From contig CAVUQF010000002.1 in the NCBI GenBank assembly GCA_963743615.1, forward strand, positions 65,697-129,696: a stretch of DNA of 64,000 nt, in the 5' to 3' direction. This document shows, in pieces, positions 2,572 to 47,178 of this stretch (the stretch's first letter is position 1; each line of letters opens with the position of its first letter). The DNA comes from an uncultured Nanoarchaeota archaeon. GTDB taxonomy: Archaea > Nanobdellota > Nanobdellia > Pacearchaeales > GW2011-AR1. The notes under the pieces are model-generated. The model searched no databases, was not told the DNA's origin, and was given only the letters and a program-made list of their open reading frames with translations. The translations under genes were made by a program, and so were the position numbers.

Positions 2572-3441
2572 TTATCCAAAGATAACCCCTGCCCCTGCAG
2601 AGATAATGAATGAGAAAACCATCATGGCGAAAGAGTGTTTTATTCCCGCTTTTATATTTCCTTCAGATAACTTTCCGATTGTCAACCCAGTAAAGAAACC
2701 TTGTGTTAATATCAGAAATAAGAACGCATTTCCCAGCTGTTGAGTTTGTAATGCTGAATTTCCCACGGTAGCTGCTGCAGCTGTTGTTGTTCCACCAAGG
2801 ACACCACTTATTCCTCCTCCTAGTGAGCCAACATTAAAACTAGATATTAATGGAAGTATTTTATACTGCATGACTAAAACAATAATCAAAAATATAAAGA
2901 AGATTACATAACCTTGTACAACCATTGTAGATGCAGTTGCCTCTCTTTCTTTTGCAAGCTTATCAGACATACTTACTGCCGATGCAACCGCTTCGAGTAT
3001 TCTTCCTATGTCCCCTCCCGCTTTCTCTGCTTCACCAATAAGAATCAAAGCTCGGGAAATTGTTTTGTTATTTACATCTTCGGAGAATGTTTGTAAGGCA
3101 TCCTTAAGGGGAATTCCCAGAGAGATTTGATTTGCAAGCTTTTTTATGTTTATACCCAGTGCTCCATAGGGTTTATCCTTAGAATTGATAATACTCTTAT
3201 TTATAGGAGTTCCACTCTTAACACTTTCTACTAGGTCTCTTGCAAATTCGAGGAACATTTCCTGTTTTTCAGCCTCTATCTTATTCTCTTGAATTACTGA
3301 AAACACAAAAGGGGAGGCTACTATTATTACTCCTATTCCCAGCAGAAAGAAGAAAAAATTTGTTTGGATAAATAACAGGGAAATTAATATTAAAGTCAGT
3401 CCTGCAATGATTCCAATCCAATGAATTCTTTTTATTTCCAT
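2572..3441 (-). CDS. type II secretion F-domain membrane protein (TadB/FlaJ-like platform subunit)
   Basis: It is polytopic and carries a T2SSF-like cytoplasmic domain (GIPLKDALQTF...ISRALILIGEAEKAGGDIGRILE). Confidence 0.7.
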   Translation of the reverse strand: MEIKRIHWIGIIAGLTLILISLLFIQTNFFFFLLGIGVIIVASPFVFSVIQENKIEAEKQEMFLEFARDLVESVKSGTPINKSIINSKDKPYGALGINIKKLANQISLGIPLKDALQTFSEDVNNKTISRALILIGEAEKAGGDIGRILEAVASAVSMSDKLAKEREATASTMVVQGYVIFFIFLIIVLVMQYKILPLISSFNVGSLGGGISGVLGGTTTAAAATVGNSALQTQQLGNAFLFLILTQGFFTGLTIGKLSEGNIKAGIKHSFAMMVFSFIISAGAGVIFG

Positions 3442-3442
3442 T

Positions 3443-4762: not shown

Positions 4763-4956
4763 TTTAAAATATCAGAAATTTTGCTGTTTATTTGGAGAAT
4801 AAATTTCTTTGTTTTGTTAAGATCCTCAGGATTGCTTTTTTTATAAAATTCTTCGAGTTTTTTTTCGGAATCATCAAGAGAGCTTATTAGCTGCCTGAGC
4901 TGTAACACTTGCTCCCCAATCTTGTTTTTAGAATTTTTATCATCCTCTTCTTTCAT
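4759..4956 (-). CDS. small coiled-coil hypothetical protein within the pilus operon
   Basis: 65 aa and K/E-rich. It overlaps its neighbours by 4 nt. Confidence 0.3.
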   Translation of the reverse strand: MKEEDDKNSKNKIGEQVLQLRQLISSLDDSEKKLEEFYKKSNPEDLNKTKKFILQINSKISDILK

Positions 4957-4999
4957 CTGAAGAAAAAGTGAATTCTCTTATTAAATATTTTGTTCTTAA

Positions 5000-6568: not shown

Positions 6569-7089
6569 TATCCTAGTGAAAAATCCATATTTGTAGGATT
6601 TCCTCCATTATTTGAAATTAAAAGATTGTAGGGGGTGGAAGAGTGCGTTATCTCTCTTACACTGTTTCCTCCGGAATAAGTTATGTTATATATCTTGTTG
6701 TAACTCATGGTCATGTTCACTATATTCAGATTATTTTGTGCTTGTGTATTAACTAAAATATTTCCGTAGCTCACAGGTTGCCCGGGCTCGCTAAATTGAT
6801 AATGACTATTGTCCATACTAAAAATAATGAGATCATTAGTTCCATCAATTGTCAGAGTTCCGGATGTTAAACTAATTTGCAGGCTTCTGGTATTGCCCGC
6901 ACCGTTATCTGCAAGGGACAATAAAATATTATTAATATTATTCAACATTGATACTGATTGTTGCAAAGTAGCTTTATCCTGTAATTCCATTATTTTTGGT
7001 TGAACATAAGAGAGCACTAATCCAATAATCACCAAGGCGATTAGAGTATAAATAACTGTCTCAACCCAAACCTGCCCTCTTTTACTCAT
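6568..7089 (-). CDS. type IV pilin-like protein
   Basis: The N-terminus MSKRGQVWVETVIYTLIALVIIGLVL has Gly, then Glu at +5, then a hydrophobic helix. This is the classic T4 pilin signature. Confidence 0.55.
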   Translation of the reverse strand: MSKRGQVWVETVIYTLIALVIIGLVLSYVQPKIMELQDKATLQQSVSMLNNINNILLSLADNGAGNTRSLQISLTSGTLTIDGTNDLIIFSMDNSHYQFSEPGQPVSYGNILVNTQAQNNLNIVNMTMSYNKIYNITYSGGNSVREITHSSTPYNLLISNNGGNPTNMDFSLG

Positions 7090-7188
7090 TATATTATGAA
7101 TAAAATTTAATTTAAATAATTATCATATACATCAAATTTAATTAGTTCTTAGCATAGAGAGATACAAATAATTCTATGGATCTTTTGA

Positions 7189-7806
7189 TTAATGGATAGA
7201 TAAGTCATGGTAGAAGAATTTTTTTCCTTCCATTAGAACAAAGTCAAGATAGGGATTTCCATTATAAAATAAGATTAAATCTTTGCATATCTGAACGATA
7301 TAATCTCTAAATTCAAAATCAGGAATCTCCGAAAATAGGATTTTATTATTAATAATTGGGACCTTAAATGAAAAATCCGGAGTAAAATCTGTCCCAGATT
7401 TCCTTAGTCCGTTTTTTATATCAATATAAATCGTATTTCCTATCTTAAATGAATGGCCTGTAAAAATAGTATTAGCCTCATTAAATGAGGGACCTATCGA
7501 AAAAATTCTATTTTTTCTGGAAATTCCATCCGCCTCCATCTCTGCATTTAATGATCTTAGAGCAGATTCAATTTCATTTTTATGAATATTAACTCTTCTC
7601 CATCTACCCATTTTGTAGGGGTGATCTGTAATCTTTATTCTGTTATCAGACCCCATAATTAAAATATTTTCTTTTTCTCCAATCTCCTCCAAAAATTCGG
7701 AAGGTATTTCTGAAATAATATTGAAATGAACAAACCTCTCAGGTAAGCCCATCTTCTTTAGTAACAAAACTCCTTGGATATTCATAAAAATATAGTTTAG
7801 AATCAA
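7189..7806 (-). CDS. hypothetical protein embedded in the pilus locus
   Basis: 205-aa ORF with no recognisable motif. Its start is uncertain; MGLPERF is an alternative. Confidence 0.3.
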   Translation of the reverse strand: MILNYIFMNIQGVLLLKKMGLPERFVHFNIISEIPSEFLEEIGEKENILIMGSDNRIKITDHPYKMGRWRRVNIHKNEIESALRSLNAEMEADGISRKNRIFSIGPSFNEANTIFTGHSFKIGNTIYIDIKNGLRKSGTDFTPDFSFKVPIINNKILFSEIPDFEFRDYIVQICKDLILFYNGNPYLDFVLMEGKKFFYHDLSIH

Positions 7807-7900
7807 GTTAAAAAATCTTACTCATAAAAGAATTGTAAATCGGACCAGTAGGGTAAATTTTAATTAAATTTAACTTTTTTAAGAATAACTAATGTAAACT

Positions 7901-8413
7901 TTATGATAAGAGACTACAGTCATCTAGTTTTTGTATTGAATCTGAAGCAGAGCATTGTTGCCCTCCTATCACCGGAGCAACTTGTATTGAATTTGGAGCA
8001 CTTGACCCTGTCCAAGAATAAAGATATGTTGATCCTGAGTTTATGCCCGGTAATATTACTTGCGAACTTCCATCTGGATAATTTGATAAACCCTGAATTG
8101 CCTGAGTTTGTGTTGTTATTGTAAAACTTTTCGATTGGCTTGGGCCAGAAATTGAAACTAAAGCTCCATCTACACTACTGCCACCTATATTCAATGAGAA
8201 TTGAACTTGATTTGAACTGCTATTATAACAAGAATATTCATTGTTTAAGGTGATATCATTGTAAACATTGTAACAAGATGTCGACTGGCTAATTTTAGGG
8301 CTGATAAAATTGTTTATCACAGTCCATACAACCGCAACCAGCACGATTGTTAATACGACAAGAAGCAAAGTTGCTATAATAGTTGAGATGCCTCTCTTAT
8401 TTTTTGAAAACAT
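7901..8413 (-). CDS. archaeal-type pilin (DUF361-like N-terminus)
   Basis: N-terminus MFSKNKRGISTIIATLLLVVLTIVLVAVV. The mature part is S/T/N-rich. Confidence 0.6.
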   Translation of the reverse strand: MFSKNKRGISTIIATLLLVVLTIVLVAVVWTVINNFISPKISQSTSCYNVYNDITLNNEYSCYNSSSNQVQFSLNIGGSSVDGALVSISGPSQSKSFTITTQTQAIQGLSNYPDGSSQVILPGINSGSTYLYSWTGSSAPNSIQVAPVIGGQQCSASDSIQKLDDCSLLS

Positions 8414-8414
8414 T

Positions 8415-8897
8415 TTAACTTAAAGAAATTTTATATTGATTCTGGCTTCCACAGGTATAAACCTGCTCTTGCCCTCCACTTGTGCTTCCCATTAATATTG
8501 GAATTAAGACTAAGCTGCTAGATCCAGATGGCAAGGTGACACTTCCAGAGAACACTCCCCCCTGATTTATTCCTATTTTGGGCCAACTTGAGATTAGACT
8601 GCTCACTGTTTGAGTTTGGTATGCTCCTCCGGCTCCATTAATTTGAACATTAAAGTTATAGATTGGTACATTTCCTGTATTAGAAATTGCTAGAGTTCCT
8701 GAAGTAGTAGACGTTGATGAATAACTCCCCTCAAACTGAACGTTATTACAAACCAATTGAATATTTTCTCCTCCAAATTTAGTCACCGCCTCTTGCGTAA
8801 AGCTTCTGAACCAGAAGAATACAACCAGCCCTAAAGCGATAACAATTCCAATCAGTAAAACTGTTGCTATTACTGGCGAAACCCCCTTTTTGTTCAT
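8415..8897 (-). CDS. archaeal-type pilin (DUF361-like N-terminus)
   Basis: The N-terminus MNKKGVSPVIATVLLIGIVIALGLVVF matches the archaeal pilin N-terminal domain consensus (GVSPVIATVLLI). Confidence 0.65.
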   Translation of the reverse strand: MNKKGVSPVIATVLLIGIVIALGLVVFFWFRSFTQEAVTKFGGENIQLVCNNVQFEGSYSSTSTTSGTLAISNTGNVPIYNFNVQINGAGGAYQTQTVSSLISSWPKIGINQGGVFSGSVTLPSGSSSLVLIPILMGSTSGGQEQVYTCGSQNQYKISLS

Positions 8898-8945
8898 ATT
8901 TTATTAAGTACAAATTAGTTTATAAATATAATGAGATTTTGAAAA

Positions 8946-9515
8946 TTAAGAACAGGTTATTGGGAGATCTATCTTTGCATTATCACACCCTGCAATCACA
9001 TTTCTTCCATTTAATTCCACAAATCTTGTCGGGGTAATCTCCAAACTGTTCAATGTTGTAATAGGGATCACAGGGTTTATCTTTGATAAATCGAAAAAAT
9101 TATCACTACCCCCCGTTATTTCTCCCGGGCTAAATGGGTTCAGGCTTGGATTAAGATTCCCCTCTGTAAGAAGGAAATAATAAACAGCATTGTTTGCTAT
9201 TGTGTAATCTCCCGAATAATATTCCGTAAGATCTATTGTGGCTATCTGTTGATTTGGACTATCCGATCCATGTATGAAGTAACCTGAAATGTTGAAAGTT
9301 CCTGTGTTTTGCAGTGTTAGATTTAGTGTGTTGCTTGCACAGCTGTAATTATAACTAATTACAGATAGAGATACCCCGTCGGGGCAAGATATTGCATCTT
9401 GAGGAACATAAGTTTTAAGCCATTGATATACAAAAATGCTTATTGTTACAACAATTGCAACTAATAAAATATATCCGATGATTTCGCTTACACCTTTTTT
9501 ATTTTTTGTATTCAT
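8946..9515 (-). CDS. archaeal-type pilin-like protein
   Basis: N-terminus MNTKNKKGVSEIIGYILLVAIVVTISI. Confidence 0.55.
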   Translation of the reverse strand: MNTKNKKGVSEIIGYILLVAIVVTISIFVYQWLKTYVPQDAISCPDGVSLSVISYNYSCASNTLNLTLQNTGTFNISGYFIHGSDSPNQQIATIDLTEYYSGDYTIANNAVYYFLLTEGNLNPSLNPFSPGEITGGSDNFFDLSKINPVIPITTLNSLEITPTRFVELNGRNVIAGCDNAKIDLPITCS

Positions 9516-10021
9516 TATCCGCTTACAGTGTAATTCTGTCCCCCGCTTTGACTAGATATAATAAAGAAAAAATTCTCATTTGATAATTGGAAGTTATAGT
9601 TATAATTATTAATCATGACACTTACTGTGCTTCCAGAAGGATTAAAATATTCTGAATATACTTTTTGGAGTGTATTCGTCGGAGAAAAACCATCTATTCT
9701 GACAGTGGCAGGAAAATTTTGATATATCGTAACGTTCATTCCATTTGTTCCATTAAAAATAAAATACCAATCATCTTGGGGTGTGCTATTAATGTATAAG
9801 TTGGCTAGAGAATATAAGCTATTTTCCATTTGTGCATTATCATAGTGGTTAACTATTCCATAATTTATAACTTTTTGGCTTTCAATTGTGAGTTCATCTT
9901 TTAAGTAGGAAGCATCGTAATTTTGTTGTGAAGAAACAGAATTTGAAACTACAAAAAAACCTATTGAAGCAGAAATGATAACTATTGCGGCTATGAGGAA
10001 GAACTGCCCCCTTTTGTTCAT
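9515..10021 (-). CDS. pilin-like protein, first gene of the operon
   Basis: N-terminus MNKRGQFFLIAAIVIISASIGFFV. It shares 1 nt with the next gene. Confidence 0.5.
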   Translation of the reverse strand: MNKRGQFFLIAAIVIISASIGFFVVSNSVSSQQNYDASYLKDELTIESQKVINYGIVNHYDNAQMENSLYSLANLYINSTPQDDWYFIFNGTNGMNVTIYQNFPATVRIDGFSPTNTLQKVYSEYFNPSGSTVSVMINNYNYNFQLSNENFFFIISSQSGGQNYTVSG

Positions 10022-18799: not shown

Positions 18800-19417
18800 T
18801 TGCATAATCTTATAATGGACCCCGTCCCCGATAAGAACTTGAAAGATAAGATTTCTGCGCTAGATCCGCAATTCCGAGAAAAAATAAGCAAGATGTTTGA
18901 AGCTATGCATCAGTCGATTGACCTGCTTTATGATGCTGCGATTCATGATGAAAAGACGGGATTGTATAATCATAAATTCTTTGATACTGTTATTGATATG
19001 GAAATAGAGAAGGCAGAGAGAAAAAAGGAGAAGCTTTCTTTGGTCATGATTGATATAGACCATTTTAAAAAAATAAATGATACTTACGGGCATCTAAAAG
19101 CTGATGAGATGCTTGCCAAGCTTGCAAAAGTTTTGATGAACTGTGCAAGGAAGTCTGATGTTGTTGCAAGATTTGGCGGAGAAGAATTTTTTATACTGCT
19201 TCCCGAAACACAGATAGAAAAAGCAAAAAAATTTGCATCTAGACTAAAAACTGCAATTCACAGAGATGTTTTTCTAAAAAAATACAAGCTCACGGTAAGC
19301 GGGGGCATAACTCAATTTAAAGCAAAGGATGACAAGGCAAGATTTAAGGAGAGGGCGGACAGGGCATTGTACAAGGCAAAAGAGGGCGGTCGTGACAGGT
19401 TCGAGGTTTTGAAATAA
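18800..19417 (+). CDS. GGDEF-domain diguanylate cyclase with an intact GGEEF site
   Basis: KTGLYNHKFFD...LVMIDIDHFKKINDTYGHLKADEMLAKLAKVL...ARFGGEEFFILLPET...TVSGGIT...ADRALYKAKEGGRDRF. A-site and I-site-like motifs are both present. Confidence 0.8.
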   Translation: MHNLIMDPVPDKNLKDKISALDPQFREKISKMFEAMHQSIDLLYDAAIHDEKTGLYNHKFFDTVIDMEIEKAERKKEKLSLVMIDIDHFKKINDTYGHLKADEMLAKLAKVLMNCARKSDVVARFGGEEFFILLPETQIEKAKKFASRLKTAIHRDVFLKKYKLTVSGGITQFKAKDDKARFKERADRALYKAKEGGRDRFEVLK

Positions 19418-24604: not shown

Positions 24605-25273
24605 ATGTTAAAACTTGGAATTGACGAAGCAGGAAGAGGACCAATTTTAGGCCCTCTAGTAATAGCTGGTTGTCTGATTGATGAAAAATTTGAGAAAGAC
24701 TTGAAGAAATTAGGTGTCAAAGATAGCAAGCAACTCACACGAAAAAAAAGAGATGAACTGGAACCAGAAATAAAAAAACTCACAGAGGCCTTTGAAATAA
24801 TTATAATCCCTCCAATTGAAATAGAAGATAATAACGAACACGGGATAAAACTTAATGAGCTTGAGGCGATTGCGGCAGCGGAAATAATAAATAAGATAAA
24901 CAAGGGATTTAACAAGATAAAAGTTATTATTGATTGTCCAAATCCGACAACAGAGACTTGGAGACAGCTGGTTTTATCAAAAATAAAAGACAAGTCTAAC
25001 ATTGATTTGATATGTGAACATAAGGCAGATGTAAACCATATTGTGACCTCTGCGGCTTCGGTCCTGGCAAAATGTGTTAGGGACAAGGAAATGTCTTTTT
25101 TGAAAGAAAAATATGGTAATGTCGGTTCAGGGTATTGCCATGATCCAGTTACAATAAAATTCGTTGAAGAGAATTTGAAAAAATATGAAGAAGAGGGCAT
25201 TTTCAGGAAAACTTGGGTAACCTGGCGAGTTGCGGTAGCTAAGGCTAATCAGAAAAAACTTGACGAGTTTTGA
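24605..25273 (+). CDS. rnhB: ribonuclease HII
   Basis: N-terminus MLKLGIDEAGRGPILGPLVIAG with DEDD residues; 222 aa. Confidence 0.9.
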   Translation: MLKLGIDEAGRGPILGPLVIAGCLIDEKFEKDLKKLGVKDSKQLTRKKRDELEPEIKKLTEAFEIIIIPPIEIEDNNEHGIKLNELEAIAAAEIINKINKGFNKIKVIIDCPNPTTETWRQLVLSKIKDKSNIDLICEHKADVNHIVTSAASVLAKCVRDKEMSFLKEKYGNVGSGYCHDPVTIKFVEENLKKYEEEGIFRKTWVTWRVAVAKANQKKLDEF

Positions 25274-25312: not shown

Positions 25313-28171
25313 ATGACCTATATTAAAAAGCTGGTGATCAAGGGGTTCAAGAGTTTTGCCAAGAAAACAGAAATTCCCTTTGTTCCGCAGATAAATGTCA
25401 TTCTTGGTCCAAATGGTTCAGGAAAGAGTAATATCACAGATGCATTATGTTTTGTTTTTGGGAGATTAAGTTCAAAATCTCTTAGAGCAGCTAAATCAAG
25501 CAATTTGATTTTTCAGGGGAATAAATTTGTTGGTGCTGCTGGGGAAGCAATTGTTGAGATAGTATTTGATAATTCTGACAAAACATTTAGTATAGAAAAA
25601 AATGAAATCTCTATAGAAAGAATTGTAAGAAAGAACGGGCAGAGTATCTACAAAATTGATGGTGAAACAAAAAATAGGCAGGATGTATTATCTCTGTTGG
25701 CTCAGGGGGGGATTGATCCCAACGGATTTAACATAATTTTACAAGGAGAAATACAAAATTTTGTTAAAATGCACACAGAAGAAAGAAGGAAAGTAGTGGA
25801 GGAAATAGCGGGGATATCAATATATGAACTGAGAAAAGAAAAGTCTCTGAAGGAACTTGAAAAAACAGATGATAAACTGAAAGAAATTTCAACCATTCTT
25901 AGAGAGAGAACTGCATATATGAATAATCTTGAAAAGGAAAGGCAACAAGCATTAAAGTTCAAAAAGCTTCAAGAGGATGTGAAAAAATTCAAGGCAAGCA
26001 TAATTTATTTCGACTTAGTGAAAAAGGAAAAAGAAGTGGAGGAGGTTAAAGCAAAGATTGAAGGTAAGAATAATGAGAAAGAAAAAGTAAAAAAAGAAAT
26101 ATCAAAAATTCAGATTTCCATAGCAGATCTGGAAGCTAAAATAAATTCTATAAATTCTAATATTCAAACATCTACGGGATTTGAACAGGAAAGGCTTAAT
26201 CAAGAAATTACTAATCTTAGAGCGGATCTCGCTGGATTAAATGCAAGATTAGAGAATAGTGATAAAAGATTGAATGAGGCACTAAAACAAAAAGAGGCTC
26301 TTAATAAGAATTTGTTAGATCTAACTTCTGAGATAGAAAAGTTGAAAAAAGAAAATCCAAAAACAGTCGTAAAAAGAAAAGAAATTGAGCAGAAAAGCGG
26401 CGAGCTTGAAAAGCTGGAATTGCAGAGAAAGAAATTTTACCTAAATAGGTCAGAGTTAAAAACATTGCTGGACCGGTTTGAAGATAAAAAAATAACACTT
26501 CGGGGTTACGAACAGGAATCTTCCTTTTTATTAGAGCAGATAAAATCAATCTCTAAGGATTTATTTGATAGAAATTCAGATAAGTCTAGATTAAATTCTT
26601 TGAAATCTTCTCTGTCTGAAAAAAGGGGATTACTAGAGAAGCTTGAAAATGAAGAGCTAAAACTGGAAAAGATTTCGTATTCAAATGAACATGAGATAGA
26701 CGGTCAAAAATCGTTTATAGTTAAAATATCAAAGATGGATGTCTGTCCTGTTTGCAAGAACAAAATTACGGAAGAACACATTCATACAATAAGTAAAGAG
26801 ACTGCAGAAAAAATTGAATTGCTTAACAGGGAAATAAAAAAGTCTGATGAACAATTGGGAGAGATCTTCAAGAAAAAGAAAATGATTCGGGAAGAAATTG
26901 AGAATATGACCTCTGAGATTTCAAAAAGAGAGTCGGATATTATTTTACTTTCAAATGTAGAAGATAAAAAAAATCAGATAAAATCTCTTCAGGAAAAAAC
27001 TGAATCTCTCAAAATAGAAATTTCAGAAATTGAGAAAAAGAAAAATAACCTGCAGAATTATGTTGATACAGACTTTGATATTGATAAAAGATACGAAGAA
27101 TTAAGATTGAAGATCCAGGAAATTCCTTTAATTAATGAAGAAGATACCGATTCTGAAATAACTTTTAAAAGACGGGACATTGAAAAGATAAAATCTTCAC
27201 TGAGGCAGTTGCTTGGAAGTGAGCAGGAATTAAAAGATGAGATCCTGAAATTTAATGCAACGATTGGTGAGAAAAACAAGAGTTTGGAGGAGAAGAAAAA
27301 GCAGGAGGAGCAGCTTAGCGAGAAATTCAAGAAATTGATCTCGGAGAGGGATGAACTTCAGAAAAATGTTAGAGATAATCAGATTTTAGTTTCACAGCAT
27401 CAAAATAAGACTTATGGAATAGAGCAAGAGATCAATAATTTAAAGATTGAAGATGCAAAATTCAATGCAGAAGCAGAGAATTTGAGACTTGAAATGAATG
27501 AATTTGAAGGAATTGAAAAGATAAAAGCTCCTAAAGAGTCCTTGACAGAAAGACTAGAGAAGGCTCAGGAAATATTGTTGGATCTTGGATCTGTAAATCT
27601 CCGTTCGCTTGAAGTTTACGAATCGGTAAAAAAAGAGTATGATTCTATAAAAGAAAAGATGCAGATCATTGATGGTGAAAAAGAAAGCATAATGAATATA
27701 ATAAAAGAGATAGATTTCAGAAAAAAGAAAACTTTCATGAAAACATTTAATGCTTTGAATGAAATCTTTTCAAGAAATTTCTCGGAGCTGAGTCAGAAAG
27801 GGCAGGTTTACCTTGAGCTTGAGAACCAGAAGGAGCCTTTTGAAGGGGGAGTCAATATAGTCCTTAAGACGGGCCACGGTAAATATTTTGACGTTACTTC
27901 CCTATCTGGGGGAGAGCAGACTCTTGTTGCATTGTCTCTGATTTTTGCTATTCAAGAACTAAAACCATATCCCTTTTATCTTTTGGATGAAATTGATGCG
28001 GCGCTTGATAAAAGAAATTCAGAAAGACTTGCAATGCTTCTCAAGAAATATATGGAGAAGGGGCAGTATATTGTAACATCACACAATGATGAAGTAATAA
28101 TGAATGCGAATAACCTATATGGTATTAGTATGAATGATGGAATAAGTAAAGTAATTAGTTTGAAAGTCTAA
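25313..28171 (+). CDS. SMC-family ATPase with a central CxxC zinc-hook-like motif and no hinge domain
   Basis: The N-terminal head IKGFKSFAKK...ILGPNGSGKSNITDALCFVFG is SMC-type. The C-terminal LSGGEQTLVALSLIFAIQELKPYPFYLLDEIDAALD is also SMC-type. The central coiled coil has its apex at ISKMDVCPVCKNKITEEH. Length is 952 aa. Confidence 0.8.
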   Translation: MTYIKKLVIKGFKSFAKKTEIPFVPQINVILGPNGSGKSNITDALCFVFGRLSSKSLRAAKSSNLIFQGNKFVGAAGEAIVEIVFDNSDKTFSIEKNEISIERIVRKNGQSIYKIDGETKNRQDVLSLLAQGGIDPNGFNIILQGEIQNFVKMHTEERRKVVEEIAGISIYELRKEKSLKELEKTDDKLKEISTILRERTAYMNNLEKERQQALKFKKLQEDVKKFKASIIYFDLVKKEKEVEEVKAKIEGKNNEKEKVKKEISKIQISIADLEAKINSINSNIQTSTGFEQERLNQEITNLRADLAGLNARLENSDKRLNEALKQKEALNKNLLDLTSEIEKLKKENPKTVVKRKEIEQKSGELEKLELQRKKFYLNRSELKTLLDRFEDKKITLRGYEQESSFLLEQIKSISKDLFDRNSDKSRLNSLKSSLSEKRGLLEKLENEELKLEKISYSNEHEIDGQKSFIVKISKMDVCPVCKNKITEEHIHTISKETAEKIELLNREIKKSDEQLGEIFKKKKMIREEIENMTSEISKRESDIILLSNVEDKKNQIKSLQEKTESLKIEISEIEKKKNNLQNYVDTDFDIDKRYEELRLKIQEIPLINEEDTDSEITFKRRDIEKIKSSLRQLLGSEQELKDEILKFNATIGEKNKSLEEKKKQEEQLSEKFKKLISERDELQKNVRDNQILVSQHQNKTYGIEQEINNLKIEDAKFNAEAENLRLEMNEFEGIEKIKAPKESLTERLEKAQEILLDLGSVNLRSLEVYESVKKEYDSIKEKMQIIDGEKESIMNIIKEIDFRKKKTFMKTFNALNEIFSRNFSELSQKGQVYLELENQKEPFEGGVNIVLKTGHGKYFDVTSLSGGEQTLVALSLIFAIQELKPYPFYLLDEIDAALDKRNSERLAMLLKKYMEKGQYIVTSHNDEVIMNANNLYGISMNDGISKVISLKV

Positions 28172-28176: not shown

Positions 28177-29391
28177 TCAGTAATAGCTTTCACTGAACTC
28201 TTCTGGCTTATTACTACTTGGCTTTCTTGCAATCAATACAAGCAAAACAGCTAGCAATGTTATGAATATCACTGCAAGAACAATTGTTAATATTACTACA
28301 GGATTTGAAACTCCATTCCCCTCTGCATTTAAAGCCAAATTAACATTGCCTGTAAGTTGCCCATCATTTGAGAAAGCGCTAACACTAAGGTTGTAACTTC
28401 CAGCGGAACTTGGAGTTGCGGTCAATGTTATTGTTCTGCTTGAGCCTGCTGGAACCGTAATTATAGAATCTGTTGATATTGCAACACCAGATGCAGTTTG
28501 AGGAACGATATTATAAACAGTTATGCTTGTTGTTGGATTTACAACTTCTAAGTTATAGGTAGCAGATTGTCCCACATTAGATGATTGTACGGGATTATCC
28601 GCAACAATATTACTCTCGAATGAGTTTTCTATATTAAGAGTTGTAGTTTGTACTTCATCAACATACCCATTTCTTACCTCAGCCTGAACAATATATGATC
28701 CGGAGGTCACGTTGTATGAAGGCAACTGAAGGTATACTGTTCCACTTGTAGTATCATTTGATTGAACAACATTATTCAAATCTCCAAAATAAGCTGTTTT
28801 TTCAACATTTAATGCAGGAATGCTTACAATCACATAAAGATCATTTAACTCATTATATCCTGTATTTTTCAAGACAACATTAACAGGCACTAATCCTCCT
28901 GCGTTAACACTGCCTACAGTGTTTAAAGACATAACTTCTACATTATAAGACTGTCTCTGGTATCTAAAATATACTGTCTGTTGTGTTTCAACTACAGAGG
29001 AATCTCCATTCCAAATGGTTACAACAACCGGTAAATTATTACTTTGAATATCCCCATTGTCTGAAGGTATGCTAATGCTTAAAGGTTCTACATAAGTCTG
29101 TCCAGTCTCGATATCACCTACAAAGACCTGACTTTGAATATCTCCATTAATACCCTGAACATTTACACTCAAATATACATTTGATTCATTTGCGTTTGCT
29201 GTGAATGTGACAGTTACAGGCACACTATTACCTGCGAGAACGGCTATGCTTTGCCCGTTGCCAACTCCGTTTAGGCTATTCACATTTAAATTTGTAATAG
29301 TGGCAATTTGGTTAGCAGAGACTACACTAGTCAAAACAAGAACGCTTGCTAATATCAGAAAAGAAACCAAAAATTTCTTTTGTTTGTTCAT
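28177..29391 (-). CDS. cell-surface protein with a signal peptide, Ig/CARDB-like repeats and a C-terminal TM anchor
   Basis: N-terminal signal MNKQKKFLVSFLILASVLVLTSVVSA. Repeated beta-rich T/S/N/V domains. C-terminal TM followed by a basic tail. Confidence 0.5.
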   Translation of the reverse strand: MNKQKKFLVSFLILASVLVLTSVVSANQIATITNLNVNSLNGVGNGQSIAVLAGNSVPVTVTFTANANESNVYLSVNVQGINGDIQSQVFVGDIETGQTYVEPLSISIPSDNGDIQSNNLPVVVTIWNGDSSVVETQQTVYFRYQRQSYNVEVMSLNTVGSVNAGGLVPVNVVLKNTGYNELNDLYVIVSIPALNVEKTAYFGDLNNVVQSNDTTSGTVYLQLPSYNVTSGSYIVQAEVRNGYVDEVQTTTLNIENSFESNIVADNPVQSSNVGQSATYNLEVVNPTTSITVYNIVPQTASGVAISTDSIITVPAGSSRTITLTATPSSAGSYNLSVSAFSNDGQLTGNVNLALNAEGNGVSNPVVILTIVLAVIFITLLAVLLVLIARKPSSNKPEEFSESYY

Positions 29392-39632: not shown

Positions 39633-40208
39633 ATGAATATTAAAGATGTAAAAACTGCCTTTAAAGTTGCAGATGTAATCCTTGAAAAAGAACATCCGAT
39701 AAGACGTATAAGATTTGTTTTCCTTGATGAAATCTATGATGAACATAGAAAGAGATTAAATAACGATGTTCTAAAGGATAATTCTGGTAGAATTTATCTG
39801 ATTGTTGTGAATGGTCAAATAATGAAAATTGGTGGCTCACAAAGTAAGGGAGGGATAAAAAGCACACTATCCTTTTATCAGGGAGGATTACAAGGCGGTC
39901 CAAGTATCAGGACCTATGGAATTCATATTCTATTGAGCGAAGAACTTGAAAAAGGAAAGAAAGCAGAAATTTATATGATAACTTCTCAAAGAGCAAGGAT
40001 GAAAGTAAAGGGTCTATTTAGTGAAGATGAAACGGAAGTTTCGGCATTTAAGGATATGGAAGATAAATGTAAAAAAGATTATGTTGATAAAGAAGGCACT
40101 TATCCTCCTTGGAATTTTCAGGAGAAGGGAGAACCTTGGAGAGAAGATATAACACGAGGATTAAATATACACGGTAGCAAAAGGAAAGTCTTGAATAAAA
40201 ATAACTAA
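39633..40208 (+). CDS. hypothetical protein, a candidate restriction endonuclease partner of the adjacent MTase
   Basis: 191-aa ORF convergent with the MTase, overlapping it by 4 nt. No motif is assigned, so the call rests on context only. Confidence 0.3.
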   Translation: MNIKDVKTAFKVADVILEKEHPIRRIRFVFLDEIYDEHRKRLNNDVLKDNSGRIYLIVVNGQIMKIGGSQSKGGIKSTLSFYQGGLQGGPSIRTYGIHILLSEELEKGKKAEIYMITSQRARMKVKGLFSEDETEVSAFKDMEDKCKKDYVDKEGTYPPWNFQEKGEPWREDITRGLNIHGSKRKVLNKNN

Positions 40209-41182
40209 TTTCTTGGTGGGCAATAGATTAAAATTTCGTGAGAACCTTTGATATTGCTTTCAGTTCCATTATCAATTCTATTCTTTCCTATCCTTGTTTC
40301 TCCTTGACCCATAGTATATTGCCAAATTGGAAATAATTGCTGAAATTCTTTGTAATATTCTCTTATTGTTGGACAATCATTATAAGACAAGATAAAACCA
40401 CCTTTATGCTGTTTCAATAAATCCCTTAAAACTTCGTGGGGAAATCCTTTATGATGAACAGGAATATTTCTCATAGGATAAATTCCTTTGAACATTTTAG
40501 AATCTGGTCCGATATAGTAAGGTGGGTCCAAATACATAAAATCATTTGGATATTTTTTAAGAGTATCTTGGAAATCTGCCTGTTCAACTTTCAAGTTTCC
40601 TGGTTCAAAATCTCTAATTTTTTCTATTATCTTTTTATATCTCTCTGGTTTTAGATAAATATCAGAACTCCAACCCATAAAACCAGGACCATAAGACAAA
40701 TTAAAATTATAAACATAATAAATAGCAAGGGTTAATGGGTCTAAAGTAATCTCTTTTCTCCAGACCTGATTTAATATTTTTCTTATCCTTTCAAATTCTT
40801 CTTTGGTAGGTTTTAACTCCATTAACTTTTCATAGAGAAGTTTTGGATTTTCTATTTGATATTTCCAATAATTACATAGAATATCAAAAATCTCATAACC
40901 TCGGACTTCAATATCAAGATATTTGCTCATAGCAATTTCAACAGAGCCACCACCAAAAAAAGGGGATATAACTCTTGTTACATTATCTGGCAATAGTTCA
41001 AGAATATGCCCAACAGCTAAACTCTTGCCCCCTGCATATCTTATCGGAGAAACAGGGACTCTCTTGTATTTGTTCATACTCTCTGGGTTTTTACTTCTTA
41101 TGCTTTCCAGAAAATCTCTCCTCTTTTCAGTATCCATATTTATCTCATTCTCTTTTGTCTTTTTAACTTTTCTGACTTGCAT
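40205..41182 (-). CDS. Dam-class (alpha, D12) N6-adenine DNA methyltransferase
   Basis: PIRYAGGKS; motif I ISPFFGGGSVEIAM; motif IV FMYLDPPYY. The likely true start is Met at ~41077. Its 5' end overlaps the transposase gene by 20 nt. Confidence 0.85.
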   Translation of the reverse strand: MQVRKVKKTKENEINMDTEKRRDFLESIRSKNPESMNKYKRVPVSPIRYAGGKSLAVGHILELLPDNVTRVISPFFGGGSVEIAMSKYLDIEVRGYEIFDILCNYWKYQIENPKLLYEKLMELKPTKEEFERIRKILNQVWRKEITLDPLTLAIYYVYNFNLSYGPGFMGWSSDIYLKPERYKKIIEKIRDFEPGNLKVEQADFQDTLKKYPNDFMYLDPPYYIGPDSKMFKGIYPMRNIPVHHKGFPHEVLRDLLKQHKGGFILSYNDCPTIREYYKEFQQLFPIWQYTMGQGETRIGKNRIDNGTESNIKGSHEILIYCPPRN

Positions 41183-42113
41183 TATATATTAACTCCAACC
41201 ATTTATTTTCTGAATTTAATATTAAATCAGTAGCTAATTCATAAGGACAGCAATTCAAACTTTGATGTTTGGTTATGAAATTGTAATAAACTTCCCAACC
41301 TTTCATAATCGCATTTGCAGAATTTACAGAACCGTGAAATCCTCTGAAAGTTTTAGTTCGCTGTCTAATATTATTATGCAATCTTTCAACCATAATATTG
41401 AACCCTTCGCCACGAGAAGCATTAACTTGATTATGGATTACATTTACTTGATGTGTTTTATTTGAATATCCAAAAACTTTCTTTATTGCATTAGGATAAG
41501 CCATAAGTCCATCAGTAGTTATGACTTTGATTTGTTCTCCTGTCTTGATTTTTGTTGCTTTTAGGATTTGCTTAATGTTTCTCTGTTCTCTGTGCTTTAC
41601 AAATTCAGAAGCAACCATATAACGAGTTTCAGTATCTATGGAATCAATAAACCAATTTCTATCTACTCCTCTTTTGTTGTGATATTTTCTTCTGGAATAC
41701 TCCATTTCATCAACTTGCAGTTCGCTACCGACATTCAGCTTTAAGCTGTTTGTAAATTGAGAAATCATCTTGCCATATTTCACAATCCACTTATAGATTG
41801 ACTTATGACTGGAATTATGAGGGTAGAATGCCTTAAAGTGTTCCTGAACCTTTCTGGTGCTAACTCCTCTGTAGAATAAGTCAATAGCACAAGTTATCTT
41901 TTGAGGGGCATTTCTCATTCTCTTGAAGCCATCATCAAGAACAAATGTGTTTAAGCAATCTTTACACTTATATCTTTGAATTAGACCTCTATTTTGGGTT
42001 TTTCTTCTGCACCACTTAATTGTGCTGTTGCTCTTGCATTTTGGACATATCATTTTGTTTTCCATAGTATAATTCGGTATCCGAACTATATATATCTTTC
42101 GGTATCCGAACAT
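41163..42113 (-). CDS. IS6-family-like DDE transposase with an N-terminal zinc-finger extension
   Basis: The C-terminal region (ITTDGLMAYPNAIKKVFG...HNQVNASRGEGFNIMVERLHNNIRQRTKTFRGFHGSVNSANAIMKGWEVYYNFITKH) follows the IS26/IS6 pattern. The N-terminus carries CPKCKS...CKDC. Confidence 0.7.
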   Translation of the reverse strand: MFGYRKIYIVRIPNYTMENKMICPKCKSNSTIKWCRRKTQNRGLIQRYKCKDCLNTFVLDDGFKRMRNAPQKITCAIDLFYRGVSTRKVQEHFKAFYPHNSSHKSIYKWIVKYGKMISQFTNSLKLNVGSELQVDEMEYSRRKYHNKRGVDRNWFIDSIDTETRYMVASEFVKHREQRNIKQILKATKIKTGEQIKVITTDGLMAYPNAIKKVFGYSNKTHQVNVIHNQVNASRGEGFNIMVERLHNNIRQRTKTFRGFHGSVNSANAIMKGWEVYYNFITKHQSLNCCPYELATDLILNSENKWLELIYNASQKS

Positions 42114-42187
42114 ATATTATATACCTACTTAAAGGTATAGTCTTTTAAAATAATAAAGTTTAAAAACATACCTATTTTAAGGTATAT

Positions 42188-42790
42188 ATGCCTAATAGTG
42201 AGTATATATCATTCTGCCATCGTTGTTATCACACTTGGAAGAGAAGACGAGAAGAACTTCCAAAAGTCTGCCCAAAATGTAAAAGTCCTTACTGGAATAA
42301 ACCAAAGAGAATTGCTCAAAGATTAATTCTTCCAACTTCCGAAACTATAATTAAAATCCATGATGAGATAATAAGAAAAAGTGGAGGTGAATTGGGTATA
42401 AGAGAAGATGGAGGAATACATAACTCTATTCTTAAATTACTGAATCATCAACAAAAGAACAGGAAGAATCCTGAAAGTATAGGTGCTTTTGCTTTAAACG
42501 AATTTGCTAAAAGACACTATTTTATAGATGGTAATAAAAGAATAGCTTATGCAGTAGCTAAAATATTTATGCTCATAAATAGATGTCATCTAAAAACAAA
42601 ATATGGTGAAGCTACTGAATTTATTAGAGAGGTAGCTAAATATCAAAGCAAAATAGACCTTCCAGAAATTAGGAATTGGTTTAAAGATAACAGATGTGAA
42701 ATAATTACCGAGAAAGAATTAGAAAACTATTTAAGTAGAAACTACTTTGATTTAGTATTTGAAGAGGAAGGGGGGCAAAATGGAAGATGA
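42188..42790 (+). CDS. Doc/Fic-family toxin (death-on-curing) with an N-terminal Zn ribbon
   Basis: The Doc motif HYFIDGNKRIAYAVAKIFML has the form HxFx(D/N)GNKR. The N-terminal CHRC...CPKC forms the Zn ribbon. Confidence 0.75.
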   Translation: MPNSEYISFCHRCYHTWKRRREELPKVCPKCKSPYWNKPKRIAQRLILPTSETIIKIHDEIIRKSGGELGIREDGGIHNSILKLLNHQQKNRKNPESIGAFALNEFAKRHYFIDGNKRIAYAVAKIFMLINRCHLKTKYGEATEFIREVAKYQSKIDLPEIRNWFKDNRCEIITEKELENYLSRNYFDLVFEEEGGQNGR

Positions 42791-43653: not shown

Positions 43654-46600
43654 TTATTTCTTTTCCTTGGACTCTTTCGTCAAAGGTCCAGAAACTTTTA
43701 CAAATAATCCAGGAAGTCCAGTACCAACAGGGATAGGCTGATTCAGAATTATATTTTCAACAACACTTGCAAGTTTGTCTTTGCTTCCTTTTATCGTTGC
43801 ATTTACAAACTGTTTAACTGGAGTCTCAAAAGTTGCCCTTGCTAGTATTGAAGATTTCTGAGAGATAATTCCCATTCTGGTTACCCCTGACACAACTCCC
43901 GTATTTGTCATAGCATCAGCGACCAGTTTCAAATGTCTCTTGTCTATATCTAGACCCTGATTGTTCAAGACTTCGTATATTTCATTCATTATAAGTTTTC
44001 TTGCAGATTCAATTCCGAAAACATCTGCTACTTCATAAGGATCATTTGAAATTAACTTTTCGACATCCACTTCCTTCAACTTTATTATTTCCTTCAAATT
44101 TGTTCCCAGAGTGAGTATAACAAAGTCCTTATCTCTCTTTACAATCAATATCTGGCTGACATTCTTTATTCCCGAGATTATTGTTCTCTTAAGTTTTTCC
44201 TTCAACTGATAAATTTCCTTGAAATTCAATTCTGCTGCGTCTATAACAATGGAATCTTCTTTTTCTTTTATCTTGTACCCAGATTCCTTAAGTTTTTCTG
44301 TAATCTTATCTAAAGAAGTATGAACATGCTTTAATCTTTCTTTGTTAATAATAATTTCAATCTTCTTATCGCTGAAATTTAATTTGATTTCATCCGAAAC
44401 TTCTTCTATCTTTACTTCTTTTATTTTCTCAGCAATAATTCTTGCATCTTTTTCATTGTTGAAGTTCTTGTTCAAGTAAATTTCCATCTTTGGAGATGTT
44501 GGCTTCTTTCTTGCATCAAATATTTCAATTAATCTTGGAAGTCCTTGTGTAACCTGCATTTCGGATACTCCTGCGAAGTGGAATGTTCTCAAAACCATTT
44601 GCGTCGAAGGTTCTCCAAAAGATTGTGCGGTAACTATTCCTATTGCTTCTCCTGGTTCTAACTTTCCATCTTTAAGATGAAGTTTTGAAACATCCAGTCC
44701 ATCTCCACCATACTTGAACTGAATAATGCTACCATTACTGTTTCTTACCGTTCCATCATATTCTTCTCTTAAATCCTGTAGTGCGCTTGCAAGTCTTCTG
44801 TATAAATATCCGGATTTAGGAGTTCTTAATGCAGTATCCATAAGAGAGGATCTTCCAGTCATTGCCTGGAAGAAGAATTCTTCTGGCTTAAGACCATCCA
44901 TAAATGAACTGTTAATGAATCCTCTTGCCTTTGGAGATAAATCTCCCTTTTTGAAGAAAGATAATGTTCTGTCATTAAATCCTATATCAATTCTCTTTCC
45001 TTCTAAATCTTGCTGTCCTACAGAGCAAGCCATTTGGGTAATATTAAGAATATTTCCTCCGCTTCCTGACTTGATCATATATGAAACCGGGTTATCTTCA
45101 GGGAACTCTTCTTTGACTACTTCACTGATCTTTGATCTGACCTCATTTAGTATCTGCAATATCTTAAGTTCTCTTGACTCCTCTCTTGTCTTTCCAGGTA
45201 TTATCTCAAGACTTTTATTGTTGTAAGATTCAATTATTTCTTCTGTTTTCTTTTCAGCATTCTTGATTATCTTATCTTTTTCTTCAAGAACTTTCTTTGA
45301 TACATCAAGGTCTCCTACCGAAATTGTGATTCCTCTATTTGTCAAATATTTTGTTCCTAGAGCATAAGCCTTTTTTAGTGTCTCAAAGATTACATCTCTT
45401 CCAAGTTCTCTATCAATAACTTTTACCAAATCTCCTTCCTCATCGCTGAAAATTGTTTTGTTAAGTATTCCACTAACAACTTTTCCATCCTTAATTTTTA
45501 CAGAATCATTTTCAAAACTTATCTCCTTTGGAAGAACATGTGAGAATATCTCCATCCCTGAAACTTTCTTTCCTTGTGAGCCATTGAAGATTCCACACTT
45601 GTAAAGAAGATCATCCGCAAAATCCTTTGAGAACTGTCCAAGTCCGAGTAGATATCCTCCGGTTATTGCATCCCCTGTGCATCCAATTAAATTGGTATTG
45701 TTCTTTGGGGAAATCAGATTTTTCTTTATATCCAATAGAATTCTTGCTTCTGCTCTTGCCTCTTCAGTCTGAGGAGAGTGAATATTCATTTCATCCCCAT
45801 CAAAATCCGCATTATAAGGAGGTACAGCGGCAGGGTGAACTCTGAATGTTCTTCCCGGAAGAACTCTTACGAAGTGGGCCATCAGGCTTCCCTTGTGAAG
45901 GCTTGGGTGTCTGTTGAATAAAACAACATCTCCGTCCTGAAGGTGTCTTTCGACTTTATATCCTGTAATTATTTCATTTATTATTTCATCCTTTAGCTCC
46001 GGAGTAATCTTTTTTCTCTTCCCGTCTGGTCTTATAACATAATTTGCACCGGGATAATCCTCTCCTTTTAAGATAAGTTTTTTCAAATTATCTATGTTCA
46101 GATCATTAACAGTCTCGCAAACAGTTATCACCTTTGCAATTTCATAAGGAATACCTATTTCATTTATTTCAATGCAAGGATCAGGAGAGATGACGGTTCT
46201 TGCGGAATAATTAACTCTCTTTCCTGCAAGGTTCTTTCTTATTCTTCCCTCTTTTCCTTTGATTCTTTCCGTGATTGTCTTTAATGGTTGTCCGCTTCTA
46301 TGCCTTGCGGGAGGAATTCTTGAAACAGTATTATCAAAGAATGTTGTTATATGGAACTGCAATAAATCCCAAAGATCTTCTATAATAACTTCAGGAGCTC
46401 CGGCATTAAGATTCTCCCATAATCTTTGGTTTGCTCTTATTATATCTGATAGTTTGTGAGTCAAGTCATCTTCACTTCTCTCTCCACTTTCAAGAATAAT
46501 ACTTGGACGCACAGTTACAGGAGGAACAAGAAGGTATGTTAGTATTGCCCACTCAGGTCTTGAGCTTGTAGGATCAACCCCTATCTTTTTTAGCTCTTCA

Positions 46601-47178
46601 TTTGAAATATTTTCAAGAAGTTCTCTTACTTCATTTGGAAATAATCTCTTCTTGCCAATGTAGAAACTAGTTGGCTTATCAACTTTTATCTTCTCATGGT
46701 CAGCTCCGCAGTAAGGGCATTTCTTTACGTCCTTTGCTTTCTTGGCTCTTTCACTTTGAGAATATTTCTTTAGATTTTTATCATCAAGAAGCAACTTTCC
46801 GCATTTATGGCAGAAGCATCTTAGCCCCATTTCAATCAAAGGGACATACTTCAAGTGTACAACCGGTCTTGCAAGCTCAATTCTTCCAGGGTGTCCAAGG
46901 CATTCTTTTAATCTTCCCCCACATGTTCTGCATCTTACACCCGGATCAATTGCTCCAAGTCTTAAGTCCATTAATCCTCCATCAACAGGGTAACCATCGA
47001 CATCATAGAGCTCAGGTGTTACAATCTTCGCAGCCGAGATTTTTTTAATCTCTTCCGGACTAAATAAAGTGAATTTTATCTCTCCAATTTTCTTTCTTAT
47101 TATTTGTGGATACATTTTATTCGTATTTGTTCTTAAGACCAAATTTAGTATGGATATGTAATCCTTGAAGTTCTTCAA
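43654..47178 (-). CDS. rpoA: DNA-directed RNA polymerase largest subunit; the A' and A'' regions are in a single ORF
   Basis: The N-terminal clamp Zn motif RCRTCGGRLKECLGHPGRIELARPVVH and the catalytic NADFDGDEMN are A' features. The C-terminus ...ILNQPIPVGTGLPGLFV is A''-like. The ORF is continuous over 1174 aa. Confidence 0.9.
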   Translation of the reverse strand: MKNFKDYISILNLVLRTNTNKMYPQIIRKKIGEIKFTLFSPEEIKKISAAKIVTPELYDVDGYPVDGGLMDLRLGAIDPGVRCRTCGGRLKECLGHPGRIELARPVVHLKYVPLIEMGLRCFCHKCGKLLLDDKNLKKYSQSERAKKAKDVKKCPYCGADHEKIKVDKPTSFYIGKKRLFPNEVRELLENISNEELKKIGVDPTSSRPEWAILTYLLVPPVTVRPSIILESGERSEDDLTHKLSDIIRANQRLWENLNAGAPEVIIEDLWDLLQFHITTFFDNTVSRIPPARHRSGQPLKTITERIKGKEGRIRKNLAGKRVNYSARTVISPDPCIEINEIGIPYEIAKVITVCETVNDLNIDNLKKLILKGEDYPGANYVIRPDGKRKKITPELKDEIINEIITGYKVERHLQDGDVVLFNRHPSLHKGSLMAHFVRVLPGRTFRVHPAAVPPYNADFDGDEMNIHSPQTEEARAEARILLDIKKNLISPKNNTNLIGCTGDAITGGYLLGLGQFSKDFADDLLYKCGIFNGSQGKKVSGMEIFSHVLPKEISFENDSVKIKDGKVVSGILNKTIFSDEEGDLVKVIDRELGRDVIFETLKKAYALGTKYLTNRGITISVGDLDVSKKVLEEKDKIIKNAEKKTEEIIESYNNKSLEIIPGKTREESRELKILQILNEVRSKISEVVKEEFPEDNPVSYMIKSGSGGNILNITQMACSVGQQDLEGKRIDIGFNDRTLSFFKKGDLSPKARGFINSSFMDGLKPEEFFFQAMTGRSSLMDTALRTPKSGYLYRRLASALQDLREEYDGTVRNSNGSIIQFKYGGDGLDVSKLHLKDGKLEPGEAIGIVTAQSFGEPSTQMVLRTFHFAGVSEMQVTQGLPRLIEIFDARKKPTSPKMEIYLNKNFNNEKDARIIAEKIKEVKIEEVSDEIKLNFSDKKIEIIINKERLKHVHTSLDKITEKLKESGYKIKEKEDSIVIDAAELNFKEIYQLKEKLKRTIISGIKNVSQILIVKRDKDFVILTLGTNLKEIIKLKEVDVEKLISNDPYEVADVFGIESARKLIMNEIYEVLNNQGLDIDKRHLKLVADAMTNTGVVSGVTRMGIISQKSSILARATFETPVKQFVNATIKGSKDKLASVVENIILNQPIPVGTGLPGLFVKVSGPLTKESKEKK

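Follow-up and report, generated by a model that had tools for sequence, protein, structure and literature searches.

The window analysed here, a 64-kb stretch (64,000 nucleotides, GC content about 35%) of contig CAVUQF010000002.1 from an uncultured Nanoarchaeota archaeon, contains a gene (smc) for a 952-amino-acid protein of the SMC (structural maintenance of chromosomes) superfamily. This protein is probably the orthologous condensin-type SMC of a DPANN (Nanoarchaeota) lineage, with its hinge swapped for a CPxC hook of the Rad50/ASRP type. A first-pass annotation made from the sequence alone had described SMC-type heads and a Rad50-like hook without a hinge, and this description was borne out by Pfam, by a purpose-built hinge hidden Markov model (HMM), by AlphaFold2 and by the NCBIfam and PDB scores. 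The same annotation had suggested a distinct archaeal SMC-superfamily lineage, a proposal that was not upheld, given a score of 520 bits for TIGR02169 against 118 bits for ASRP, a head clade lying within the hinge SMCs and a common gene order. The protein is best read as an orthologous SMC with a swapped hinge; a separate SMC-superfamily lineage, a Rad50 identity and an ASRP identity are not favoured.

ATPase heads

The 952-amino-acid product is encoded by an ATG-started open reading frame (ORF) of the ORF list (Table 1). The motifs quoted in the first-pass annotation were all found where it had placed them: GFKSFA (residues 11-16), the Walker A motif GPNGSGKS (32-39), the signature LSGGEQ (864-869) and FYLLDEIDAALD (888-899) in the heads, and CPVCKNKITEEH at residues 478-489. 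Across 19 diverse full-length hook SMCs, the set used for all conservation estimates below, invariant residues were found in both the N-terminal half of the head (G32, N34, G35, G37, K38, S39 and Q144) and the C-terminal half (S865, G866, G867, E868, D892, E893, D895 and H924). At the level of sequence, these motifs establish a complete SMC ABC-ATPase head, with the Walker A, Q-loop, signature, Walker B/D-loop and H-loop intact.

The Pfam SMC_N domain spanned residues 3-945 (173 bits). SMC_prok_A (TIGR02169) ranked first among the NCBIfam models, with 520.7 bits, followed by SMC_prok_B (500 bits), and the SMC_prok_A alignment consisted of two stretches, with the hinge positions skipped between them. 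The best PDB sequence match was the Pyrococcus Smc head (E=1.2e-100), followed by B. subtilis Smc (8e-71), with a much weaker match to Rad50 (5e-11). SMC proteins also ranked first in a Foldseek search with a full-length AlphaFold2 model built on a 56-sequence family alignment (mean predicted local distance difference test score, pLDDT, 72.6).

The zinc hook and the presence of repair genes nearby (MGMT, RNase HII and AP endonuclease) would be in keeping with a functional Rad50 analogue working with an Mre11-type nuclease in double-strand-break repair. This explanation is very unlikely, in view of the PDB ranking above and of the NCBIfam Rad50 models, none of which scored above 111.6 bits (cut-offs 700-1087). 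Clustering of the head with Rad50/SbcC, which the first-pass annotation had named as a possible outcome, did not occur. Furthermore, no gene for Mre11/SbcD or Rad50 was seen in the window, where unannotated ORFs were searched with Pfam and NCBIfam and the remaining genes were inspected by eye, and no Mre11 was present among the precomputed Pfam annotations of the related loci that were looked up, the GTDB loci not having been screened for it.

Membership of a defence system, as an SMC-like component of the Lamassu (LmuB), Wadjet (JetC) or MADS type, is scarcely credible. The PADLOC models mad3 (177 bits) and LmuB (91 bits) did match, but with scores comparable to the generic SMC_N head match and far below SMC_prok_A, and every locus examined had a conserved housekeeping neighbourhood lacking effector or partner genes. 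We therefore rejected this assignment.

Zinc hook in place of the hinge

No Pfam match to the hinge (PF06470) was obtained anywhere in the protein. The purpose-built hinge HMM, which scored 100-212 bits on most of the related hinge SMCs, gave no match either; a cryptic hinge, raised as a possibility in the first-pass annotation, was thus sought and none was present. The centre of the protein matched the Pfam Rad50_zn_hook model with 23.6 bits at residues 468-508 when the whole protein was searched, below the threshold of 24.3, and with 27.1 bits, above that threshold, when residues 400-560 were searched alone. The model matched 16 of 18 family members (best E=5.5e-08). The protein has three cysteines in all (residues 46, 478 and 481), two of them in the hook motif.

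AlphaFold2 modelled residues 400-560 alone as a helix-hairpin-helix (pLDDT 88.3) with 12 non-helical residues at the apex. In a Foldseek comparison of this model with 350,542 PDB chains, both chains of 1L8D, the zinc hook of P. furiosus Rad50, ranked first and second, and other Rad50 hooks (5GOX, 7ZQY and 6ZFF) were found among the matches. The E-value to 1L8D was weak (0.012), as expected of helical hairpins. With a family profile of the central region, 1L8D was again the top PDB sequence match, at an E-value (0.12) level with those of unrelated coiled coils; in the alignment, both CPxC and the [IL]T-x-EH that comes after it were in register.

Between positions 290 and 714, invariance was confined to C478, P479 and C481, and residues 471-490 formed an island of conservation amid poorly conserved arms (per-column agreement of 0.3-0.5). 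The CPxC motif was retained in all the close clusters, the full-length relatives and the cleanly translated full-length GTDB loci described below, indicating that it does not occur by chance. The hook feature is therefore real and under strong selection.

Alternatively, the motif might serve as a structural turn or be disulfide-bonded, in which case the protein would dimerise through another region or remain monomeric. The weak likeness to 1L8D in both comparisons, the occurrence of motif-free short forms inside the hook clade and the predicted status of zinc binding and dimerisation in the hook SMC leave some room for this explanation, which is nonetheless improbable: the Rad50_zn_hook threshold was passed and most members matched, the pattern CPxC-x3-[IL]T-x-EH is common to P. 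furiosus Rad50, the motif is exactly apical with both cysteines and the proline invariant, and 1L8D ranked first among all PDB chains. Sequence and model together confirmed a predicted Rad50/ASRP-type zinc hook at the apex and the absence of a hinge.

Coiled-coil arms

The full-length model contained a single long antiparallel helical arm, with no globular domain at its apex. Helices were predicted at residues 156-340, 364-415 and 424-474 in the N-terminal strand and at 487-586, 590-599, 614-729, 741-758 and 764-826 in the C-terminal strand. Both strands were interrupted by non-helical segments with pLDDT values below 50 (residues 343-356 and 603-613). In this model, two strands of about 310 residues fold back as one antiparallel arm that ends in the 12-residue, two-cysteine hairpin.

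The head-proximal parts of the arm followed the canonical SMC register, residues 171-359 aligning with SMC_prok_A positions 169-356, and residues 611-800 with positions 831-1012. Per-column conservation was 0.64-0.82 at residues 171-220, falling to about 0.3-0.5 farther out, and three residues of the joint in the C-terminal strand were invariant (N762, L766 and Y769).

Measured from the head-HMM boundaries, the strands of the 952-amino-acid protein were 307 (N) and 318 (C) residues long. The hook SMCs had median lengths of 309 (N) and 318 (C) residues, as against 324-340 and 356-363 residues for the sister hinge SMCs, and their arm length was tightly constrained (302-322 residues for the N strand and 317-382 for the C strand). 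The relatives also included hinge SMCs whose arms are much shorter (strands of about 240-260 and about 180-190 residues), namely P0156, P0163 and P0221 (943-963 amino acids) and P0209, P0210, P0224, P0237 and P0242 (810-840 amino acids). Arm lengths among the relatives were multimodal, resembling the distribution reported for prokaryotic SMCs generally.

Table 1. Features of the zinc-hook smc gene and its two flanking genes, with positions in the window
Feature	Position	Strand	Evidence or location
smc gene, 952-amino-acid zinc-hook SMC	25313..28171	+	ORF list, SMC_N, SMC_prok_A, Pyrococcus Smc head match
N-terminal ATPase-head half (residues 1-170)	25313..25822	+	alignment to Pyrococcus and B. 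subtilis Smc heads
Walker A GPNGSGKS	25406-25429	+	within N-terminal head half
Q-loop region IILQGEIQ	25733-25756	+	within N-terminal head half
N-terminal coiled-coil strand (residues 171-474)	25823..26734	+	AlphaFold2 helices, SMC_prok_A register, conservation
Conserved head-proximal neck LRERTAYMNNLEKERQQALKFKKL	25898-25969	+	within N strand
N-strand helix break (residues 341-363), elbow-like discontinuity	26333..26401	+	AlphaFold2
Predicted zinc-hook hairpin MDVCPVCKNKIT (residues 475-486)	26735..26770	+	Pfam, invariance, AlphaFold2, Foldseek
CPVC of hook	26744-26755	+	within hairpin
C-terminal coiled-coil strand (residues 487-799)	26771..27709	+	AlphaFold2 helices, SMC_prok_A match
C-strand break, partner of N-strand break	27110-27151	+	AlphaFold2
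Joint/neck motif DLGSVNLRSLEVYESVKKEY, conserved	27581-27640	+	within C strand
C-terminal ATPase-head half (residues 800-952)	27710..28168	+	alignment to Smc heads
Signature LSGGEQ	27902-27919	+	within C-terminal head half
Walker B/D-loop FYLLDEIDAALD	27974-28009	+	within C-terminal head half
H-loop His924	28082-28084	+	within C-terminal head half
Stop codon of smc gene	28169-28171	+	
RNase HII gene, upstream synteny marker outside the protein machine	24605..25273	+	homologues at related loci
404-amino-acid Ig-like surface protein gene, convergent downstream synteny marker	28177..29391	-	Pfam ASH/FixG_C

Distribution of the hook and the hinge

The best 120 matches listed, clustered at 90% identity, all had lengths of 944-958 amino acids and shared 59% identity or more with the query, and each of these 120 clusters had a single CP.C motif. 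Those with names were designated "chromosome segregation SMC family protein" and came from Nanoarchaeia, Nanoarchaeota and Pacearchaeota metagenome-assembled genomes (MAGs). Some database entries already bore a precomputed PF04423 match.

When 1.84 billion representatives clustered at 50% identity were searched exhaustively, 151 relatives were obtained, which were sorted by a test for CP.C and by the hinge HMM. The hook was found in 36 and the hinge in 100; none had both, and the remaining 15, mostly fragments, had neither. Searches with Pfam bore this out, PF06470 being present in the hinge class and absent from the members of the "neither" class of about 800 amino acids. Hook forms ranged down to 39% identity, with lengths of 946-1023 amino acids, and CP.C was present in every full-length relative down to that identity. 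A scan of GTDB species genomes identified 26 loci, the closest copy being 89% identical, and every full-length copy that translated cleanly had CP.C. The hook SMCs are thus a large, length-constrained family in DPANN archaea. The hook-type GTDB loci were labelled Nanoarchaeia, Nanoarchaeota, Pacearchaeota and Woesearchaeota, and a split between Pacearchaeota with the hook and Woesearchaeota with the hinge was rejected, since hook-type loci bear both names.

Several features of individual relatives were also recorded. SMCs of about 780-804 amino acids without a hook or hinge (P0141/P0275, P0143, P0144 and P0147; loci L008 6279-8693 and L009 6069-8483) fell within the hook clade. These mini forms lack roughly query residues 375-590, corresponding to the distal arm and the apex, and their deletions begin just distal to the N-strand helix break. 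The 804-amino-acid form lies at the locus with RNase HII upstream of the SMC gene and the surface protein and AP endonuclease genes beyond it; it was present on 10 contigs and is therefore not an assembly artefact. An 822-amino-acid neighbour at a mini-SMC locus was considered as a partner and rejected, as it is a surface protein. An insertion of about 525-545 amino acids with intein hallmarks, splitting Walker A (GPNGSGK / C...VHN / SN), was found at an identical site in two hook SMCs (P0122 and P0131) and three hinge SMCs (P0162, P0165 and P0176). Two contigs of one MAG (L017 and L018, assembly CAZOAN01) carried hook SMCs 100% identical to each other, suggesting assembly redundancy. Finally, one hook SMC (P0014, locus L011) is catalogued as belonging to "Candidatus Omnitrophota bacterium", but genes close to it encode homologues of DnaG (76% identical to that of the window) and of the surface protein; this contig is probably mis-binned.

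Head phylogeny and gene order

A neighbour-joining tree was inferred from the heads alone (116 sequences, 323 columns) and rooted on the B. subtilis head. The 19 full-length hook SMCs and four of the mini forms constituted a single clade (bootstrap value 0.895), and all 87 other sequences in the tree, the B. subtilis and Pyrococcus heads included, bear hinges. The group nearest to the hook clade consisted of 14 hinge SMCs, among which P0157 and the cluster of P0153 are named Woesearchaeota.

Gene order was consistent with a common locus. RNase HII lay upstream of the SMC gene in most of the hook-type loci with a recovered flank, and also at the hinge loci L006 and L007 and the mini-SMC loci L008 and L009; the surface protein had homologues downstream of the SMC gene in loci of all three types. 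The loci of the closest hinge SMCs, P0153 and P0154, had RNase HII upstream (41-43% identity) and a convergent surface protein of about 405-433 amino acids downstream (E ~1e-10), and an Ile-tRNA synthetase gene was found nearby at both the hinge locus of P0150 and in the window. The order RNase HII, SMC, surface protein, AP endonuclease and DnaG recurred across the hook-type loci. Since the heads, neck and proximal arms are SMC-like, the hook SMCs form a clade inside the hinge SMCs and the locus is common to both, the hook gene can be considered a derived orthologue of the canonical SMC gene. The simplest reading is that the hinge was replaced a single time in the resident smc gene.

Extent of the exchange and source of the hook

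When residues 360-610 were analysed in isolation, ASRP was the best NCBIfam match (47.6 bits, E=1e-12), through the hook, which aligned with ASRP profile positions 192-427; Rad50 followed (27.7 bits) and no SMC model matched. In a set of 18 diverse hook modules, ASRP matched 17, Rad50 16 and SMC 10. As a control, the hinge-excised distal arms of eight sister SMCs were matched by SMC in all eight cases, by ASRP in five and by Rad50 in one. The control matches to ASRP reached merely 19-26 bits over a single strand, so part of the ASRP signal is coiled-coil background. The excess ASRP/Rad50 signal roughly equals the contribution of the hook motif itself, and full-length alignments carry the SMC match to about residue 460. 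Grafting of the entire distal arm was therefore rejected, on the grounds that hinge controls match ASRP and that 10 of the 18 hook modules still match SMC. The kinship with the ASRP, Sph and ClsN families that the first-pass annotation had considered can be retained for the apex, which resembles the ASRP/Rad50 hook region, but not for the heads, neck and proximal arms, which are those of a canonical SMC.

These scores bear on a further explanation, that of a paralogous second SMC-like protein, engaged in compartment organisation of the ClsN/ASRP kind or in repair, alongside a canonical hinge SMC at some other place in the genome. The distal 250 residues do score best with ASRP and Rad50, scpA does not adjoin the hook SMC gene and the searches covered loci rather than whole genomes. 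Nevertheless, the hook SMC shares its locus slot with the hinge SMC of its closest relatives, no representative combines hook with hinge, the two types stand as sister-like groups in the head tree, and the heads, neck and proximal arms are canonical, with the full-length ASRP (NF045487) score, for which residues 299-604 are mainly responsible, well below the cut-off of 300. A paralogue is accordingly unlikely, and we retain the interpretation of the protein as the orthologous SMC.

Partners, proposed mechanism and strength of the interpretation

Several observations weigh against this interpretation. The SMC_prok_A score lies below the NCBIfam equivalog cut-off of 729.4 for TIGR02169. The pairing of the hook clade with the Woesearchaeota-type hinge SMCs as sister groups had a bootstrap value of only 0.17 in the neighbour-joining tree of 323 columns. 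Four relatives within the hook clade have neither hook nor hinge, which implies that the apex module is dispensable in some lineages. In most Euryarchaeota, smc adjoins scpA (PMC7055376); no scpA adjoins the gene here. Neither ScpA nor ScpB was found in the 64-kb window by Pfam and NCBIfam searches of the unannotated ORFs and inspection of the remaining genes by eye. An ScpA HMM, built from PDB sequences fetched with a B. subtilis ScpA as bait, gave no match in six-frame ORFs of the window or of about 390 kb of related loci, although this HMM is entirely bacterial and a divergent DPANN ScpA could escape it.

The first-pass annotation had reported RNase HII and a surface protein as the neighbours of the gene and neither a kleisin nor Mre11 next door, and the same was found here. 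Likewise, Pfam and NCBIfam searches of the examined neighbours in the related loci yielded no kleisin, ScpB or other candidate partner. A 231-amino-acid gene upstream of the hinge-type P0150 was considered as a candidate kleisin and rejected; it is not kleisin-like and has no homologue in the window.

In the mechanism that we propose, the globular hinge and roughly 30-45 residues of adjoining coiled coil per strand would have been replaced by the CPxC hook. Two protomers would jointly hold one Zn2+ ion through four cysteines, as suggested by the motif, the model and analogy with Rad50, giving a putative constitutive homodimer with arms of about 45 nm (about 310 residues at about 0.15 nm each). 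The heads would engage and disengage in an ATP-driven manner, with the neck and cap, both strongly conserved, probably serving as kleisin-binding sites, and chromosomal DNA may be organised or segregated by analogy with Smc-ScpA. The hook would supply the dimerisation function of the hinge, and that function alone. A more far-reaching version, in which this very species-rich DPANN branch as a whole runs its only SMC complex hinge-free with a hook captured by recombination from Rad50/ASRP, some members having gone on to delete the distal arm and the apex, is a serious possibility to which we would assign slightly less than an even chance.

Other features of the window

The window also contains genes for the DnaG primase, EF-1alpha, EF-2, RNA polymerase subunits, aminoacyl-tRNA synthetases and pilin-like proteins. 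A single ORF of 1152 amino acids (43654-47115, reverse strand) contains Rpb1 domains 1-5, so the largest subunit of RNA polymerase is apparently unsplit; the A' and A'' subunits are encoded by separate genes in most archaea. A small, mobile-looking island (40205-42790), with a D12-class adenine methyltransferase, an IS240-type DDE transposase and a Fic/DOC protein, separates the ribosomal protein genes from those for RNA polymerase. A 200-amino-acid protein (18815-19417, forward strand) consists essentially of one GGDEF diguanylate cyclase domain (148 bits); to our knowledge, c-di-GMP signalling is not typical of archaea. Two further loci on the reverse strand were assigned by eye: a 345-amino-acid product (53161-54198) resembles a dCTP deaminase fused to a Nudix hydrolase domain, and a cluster at 1359-10021, encoding short proteins with pilin-like N-terminal signal/hydrophobic segments, a secretion ATPase-like protein and a polytopic membrane protein, resembles a type IV pilus or archaellum-like cluster.

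Significance

We found no description of a natural SMC with a zinc hook in the open-access literature, although an earlier mention elsewhere is possible. Annotation pipelines label the hook SMCs simply as "SMC family protein", because the hinge has been swapped for the hook. The hook SMC would be the natural counterpart of a domain swap previously made in the laboratory only, and would illustrate cleanly how two branches of the SMC superfamily can trade modules. The role of the SMC hinge beyond dimerisation has long been debated, among the proposals being that it gates the entry of DNA, binds DNA or works with the heads in loop extrusion. The swap appears to have been made once and to have been retained through deep divergence (to 39% identity) with near-fixed arm lengths, which argues that a bare dimerising hook suffices for SMC function in these cells. 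If the hook SMC is the only SMC of the lineage, the roles proposed for the hinge in DNA binding, gating or loop extrusion would be dispensable in nature. The hook and apex-deleted SMCs would then be ready-made minimal systems for tests of SMC mechanism, and the family supplies small hinge-free SMCs and apex-less mini variants for biochemistry and single-molecule work.

Comparison with known systems

Rad50/SbcC resembles the hook SMC in having an apical CPxC hook on an antiparallel coiled coil, and the motif CPVC-x3-[IL]T-x-EH is nearly identical in P. furiosus Rad50, but the heads of the hook SMC are not of the Rad50 type and no Mre11/SbcD gene was seen nearby. The ASRP family, the hooks of which have been described for ClsN (coalescin) and Sph1/Sph2 (PMC9389158), is archaeal and likewise combines an SMC-like fold with an apical zinc hook; its profile is the best NCBIfam match for the distal region. 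It differs in having a 593-position profile, as against 952 amino acids here, and the hook SMC has canonical SMC heads and falls short of the ASRP cut-off.

Sussfeld et al. (2025) described a cluster of hinge-less SMCs from marine Actinobacteria, explicitly without CxxC (PMC12153180). These proteins share with the hook SMC the SMC-type heads, a coiled coil, the lack of a hinge and a metagenomic origin, but they are bacterial and have no CxxC, whereas a zinc hook is predicted here; the forms of about 800 amino acids within the hook clade are closer to the actinobacterial case.

The canonical Smc of Smc-ScpA(B) (TIGR02169/TIGR02168) is alike in its head motifs, neck and joint, in-register proximal arms, rod architecture and genomic position, and in its long antiparallel arm of about 250-350 residues per strand. 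The hook SMC differs from it in having a CPxC hairpin in place of the PF06470 hinge, strands shorter by about 25-45 residues, a score under the equivalog cut-off and no adjoining scpA. This combination has an engineered precedent. Buermann et al. (2017) exchanged the hinge of B. subtilis Smc for the hook of P. furiosus Rad50, obtained normal growth and inferred that chromosome segregation does not depend on which fold the dimerisation domain has (PMC5344682). Tatebe et al. demonstrated the reverse swap in fission yeast (PMC6969161), and a MukB hinge can stand in for the Rad50 hook. Like the hook SMC, the chimera Smc(Zh) combines SMC heads and arms with a Rad50-type hook, and it supports normal growth when its arm length is suitable; unlike the chimera, the hook SMC, the function of which is predicted, is natural and lineage-wide, and has been maintained in its DPANN hosts by long-term purifying selection.

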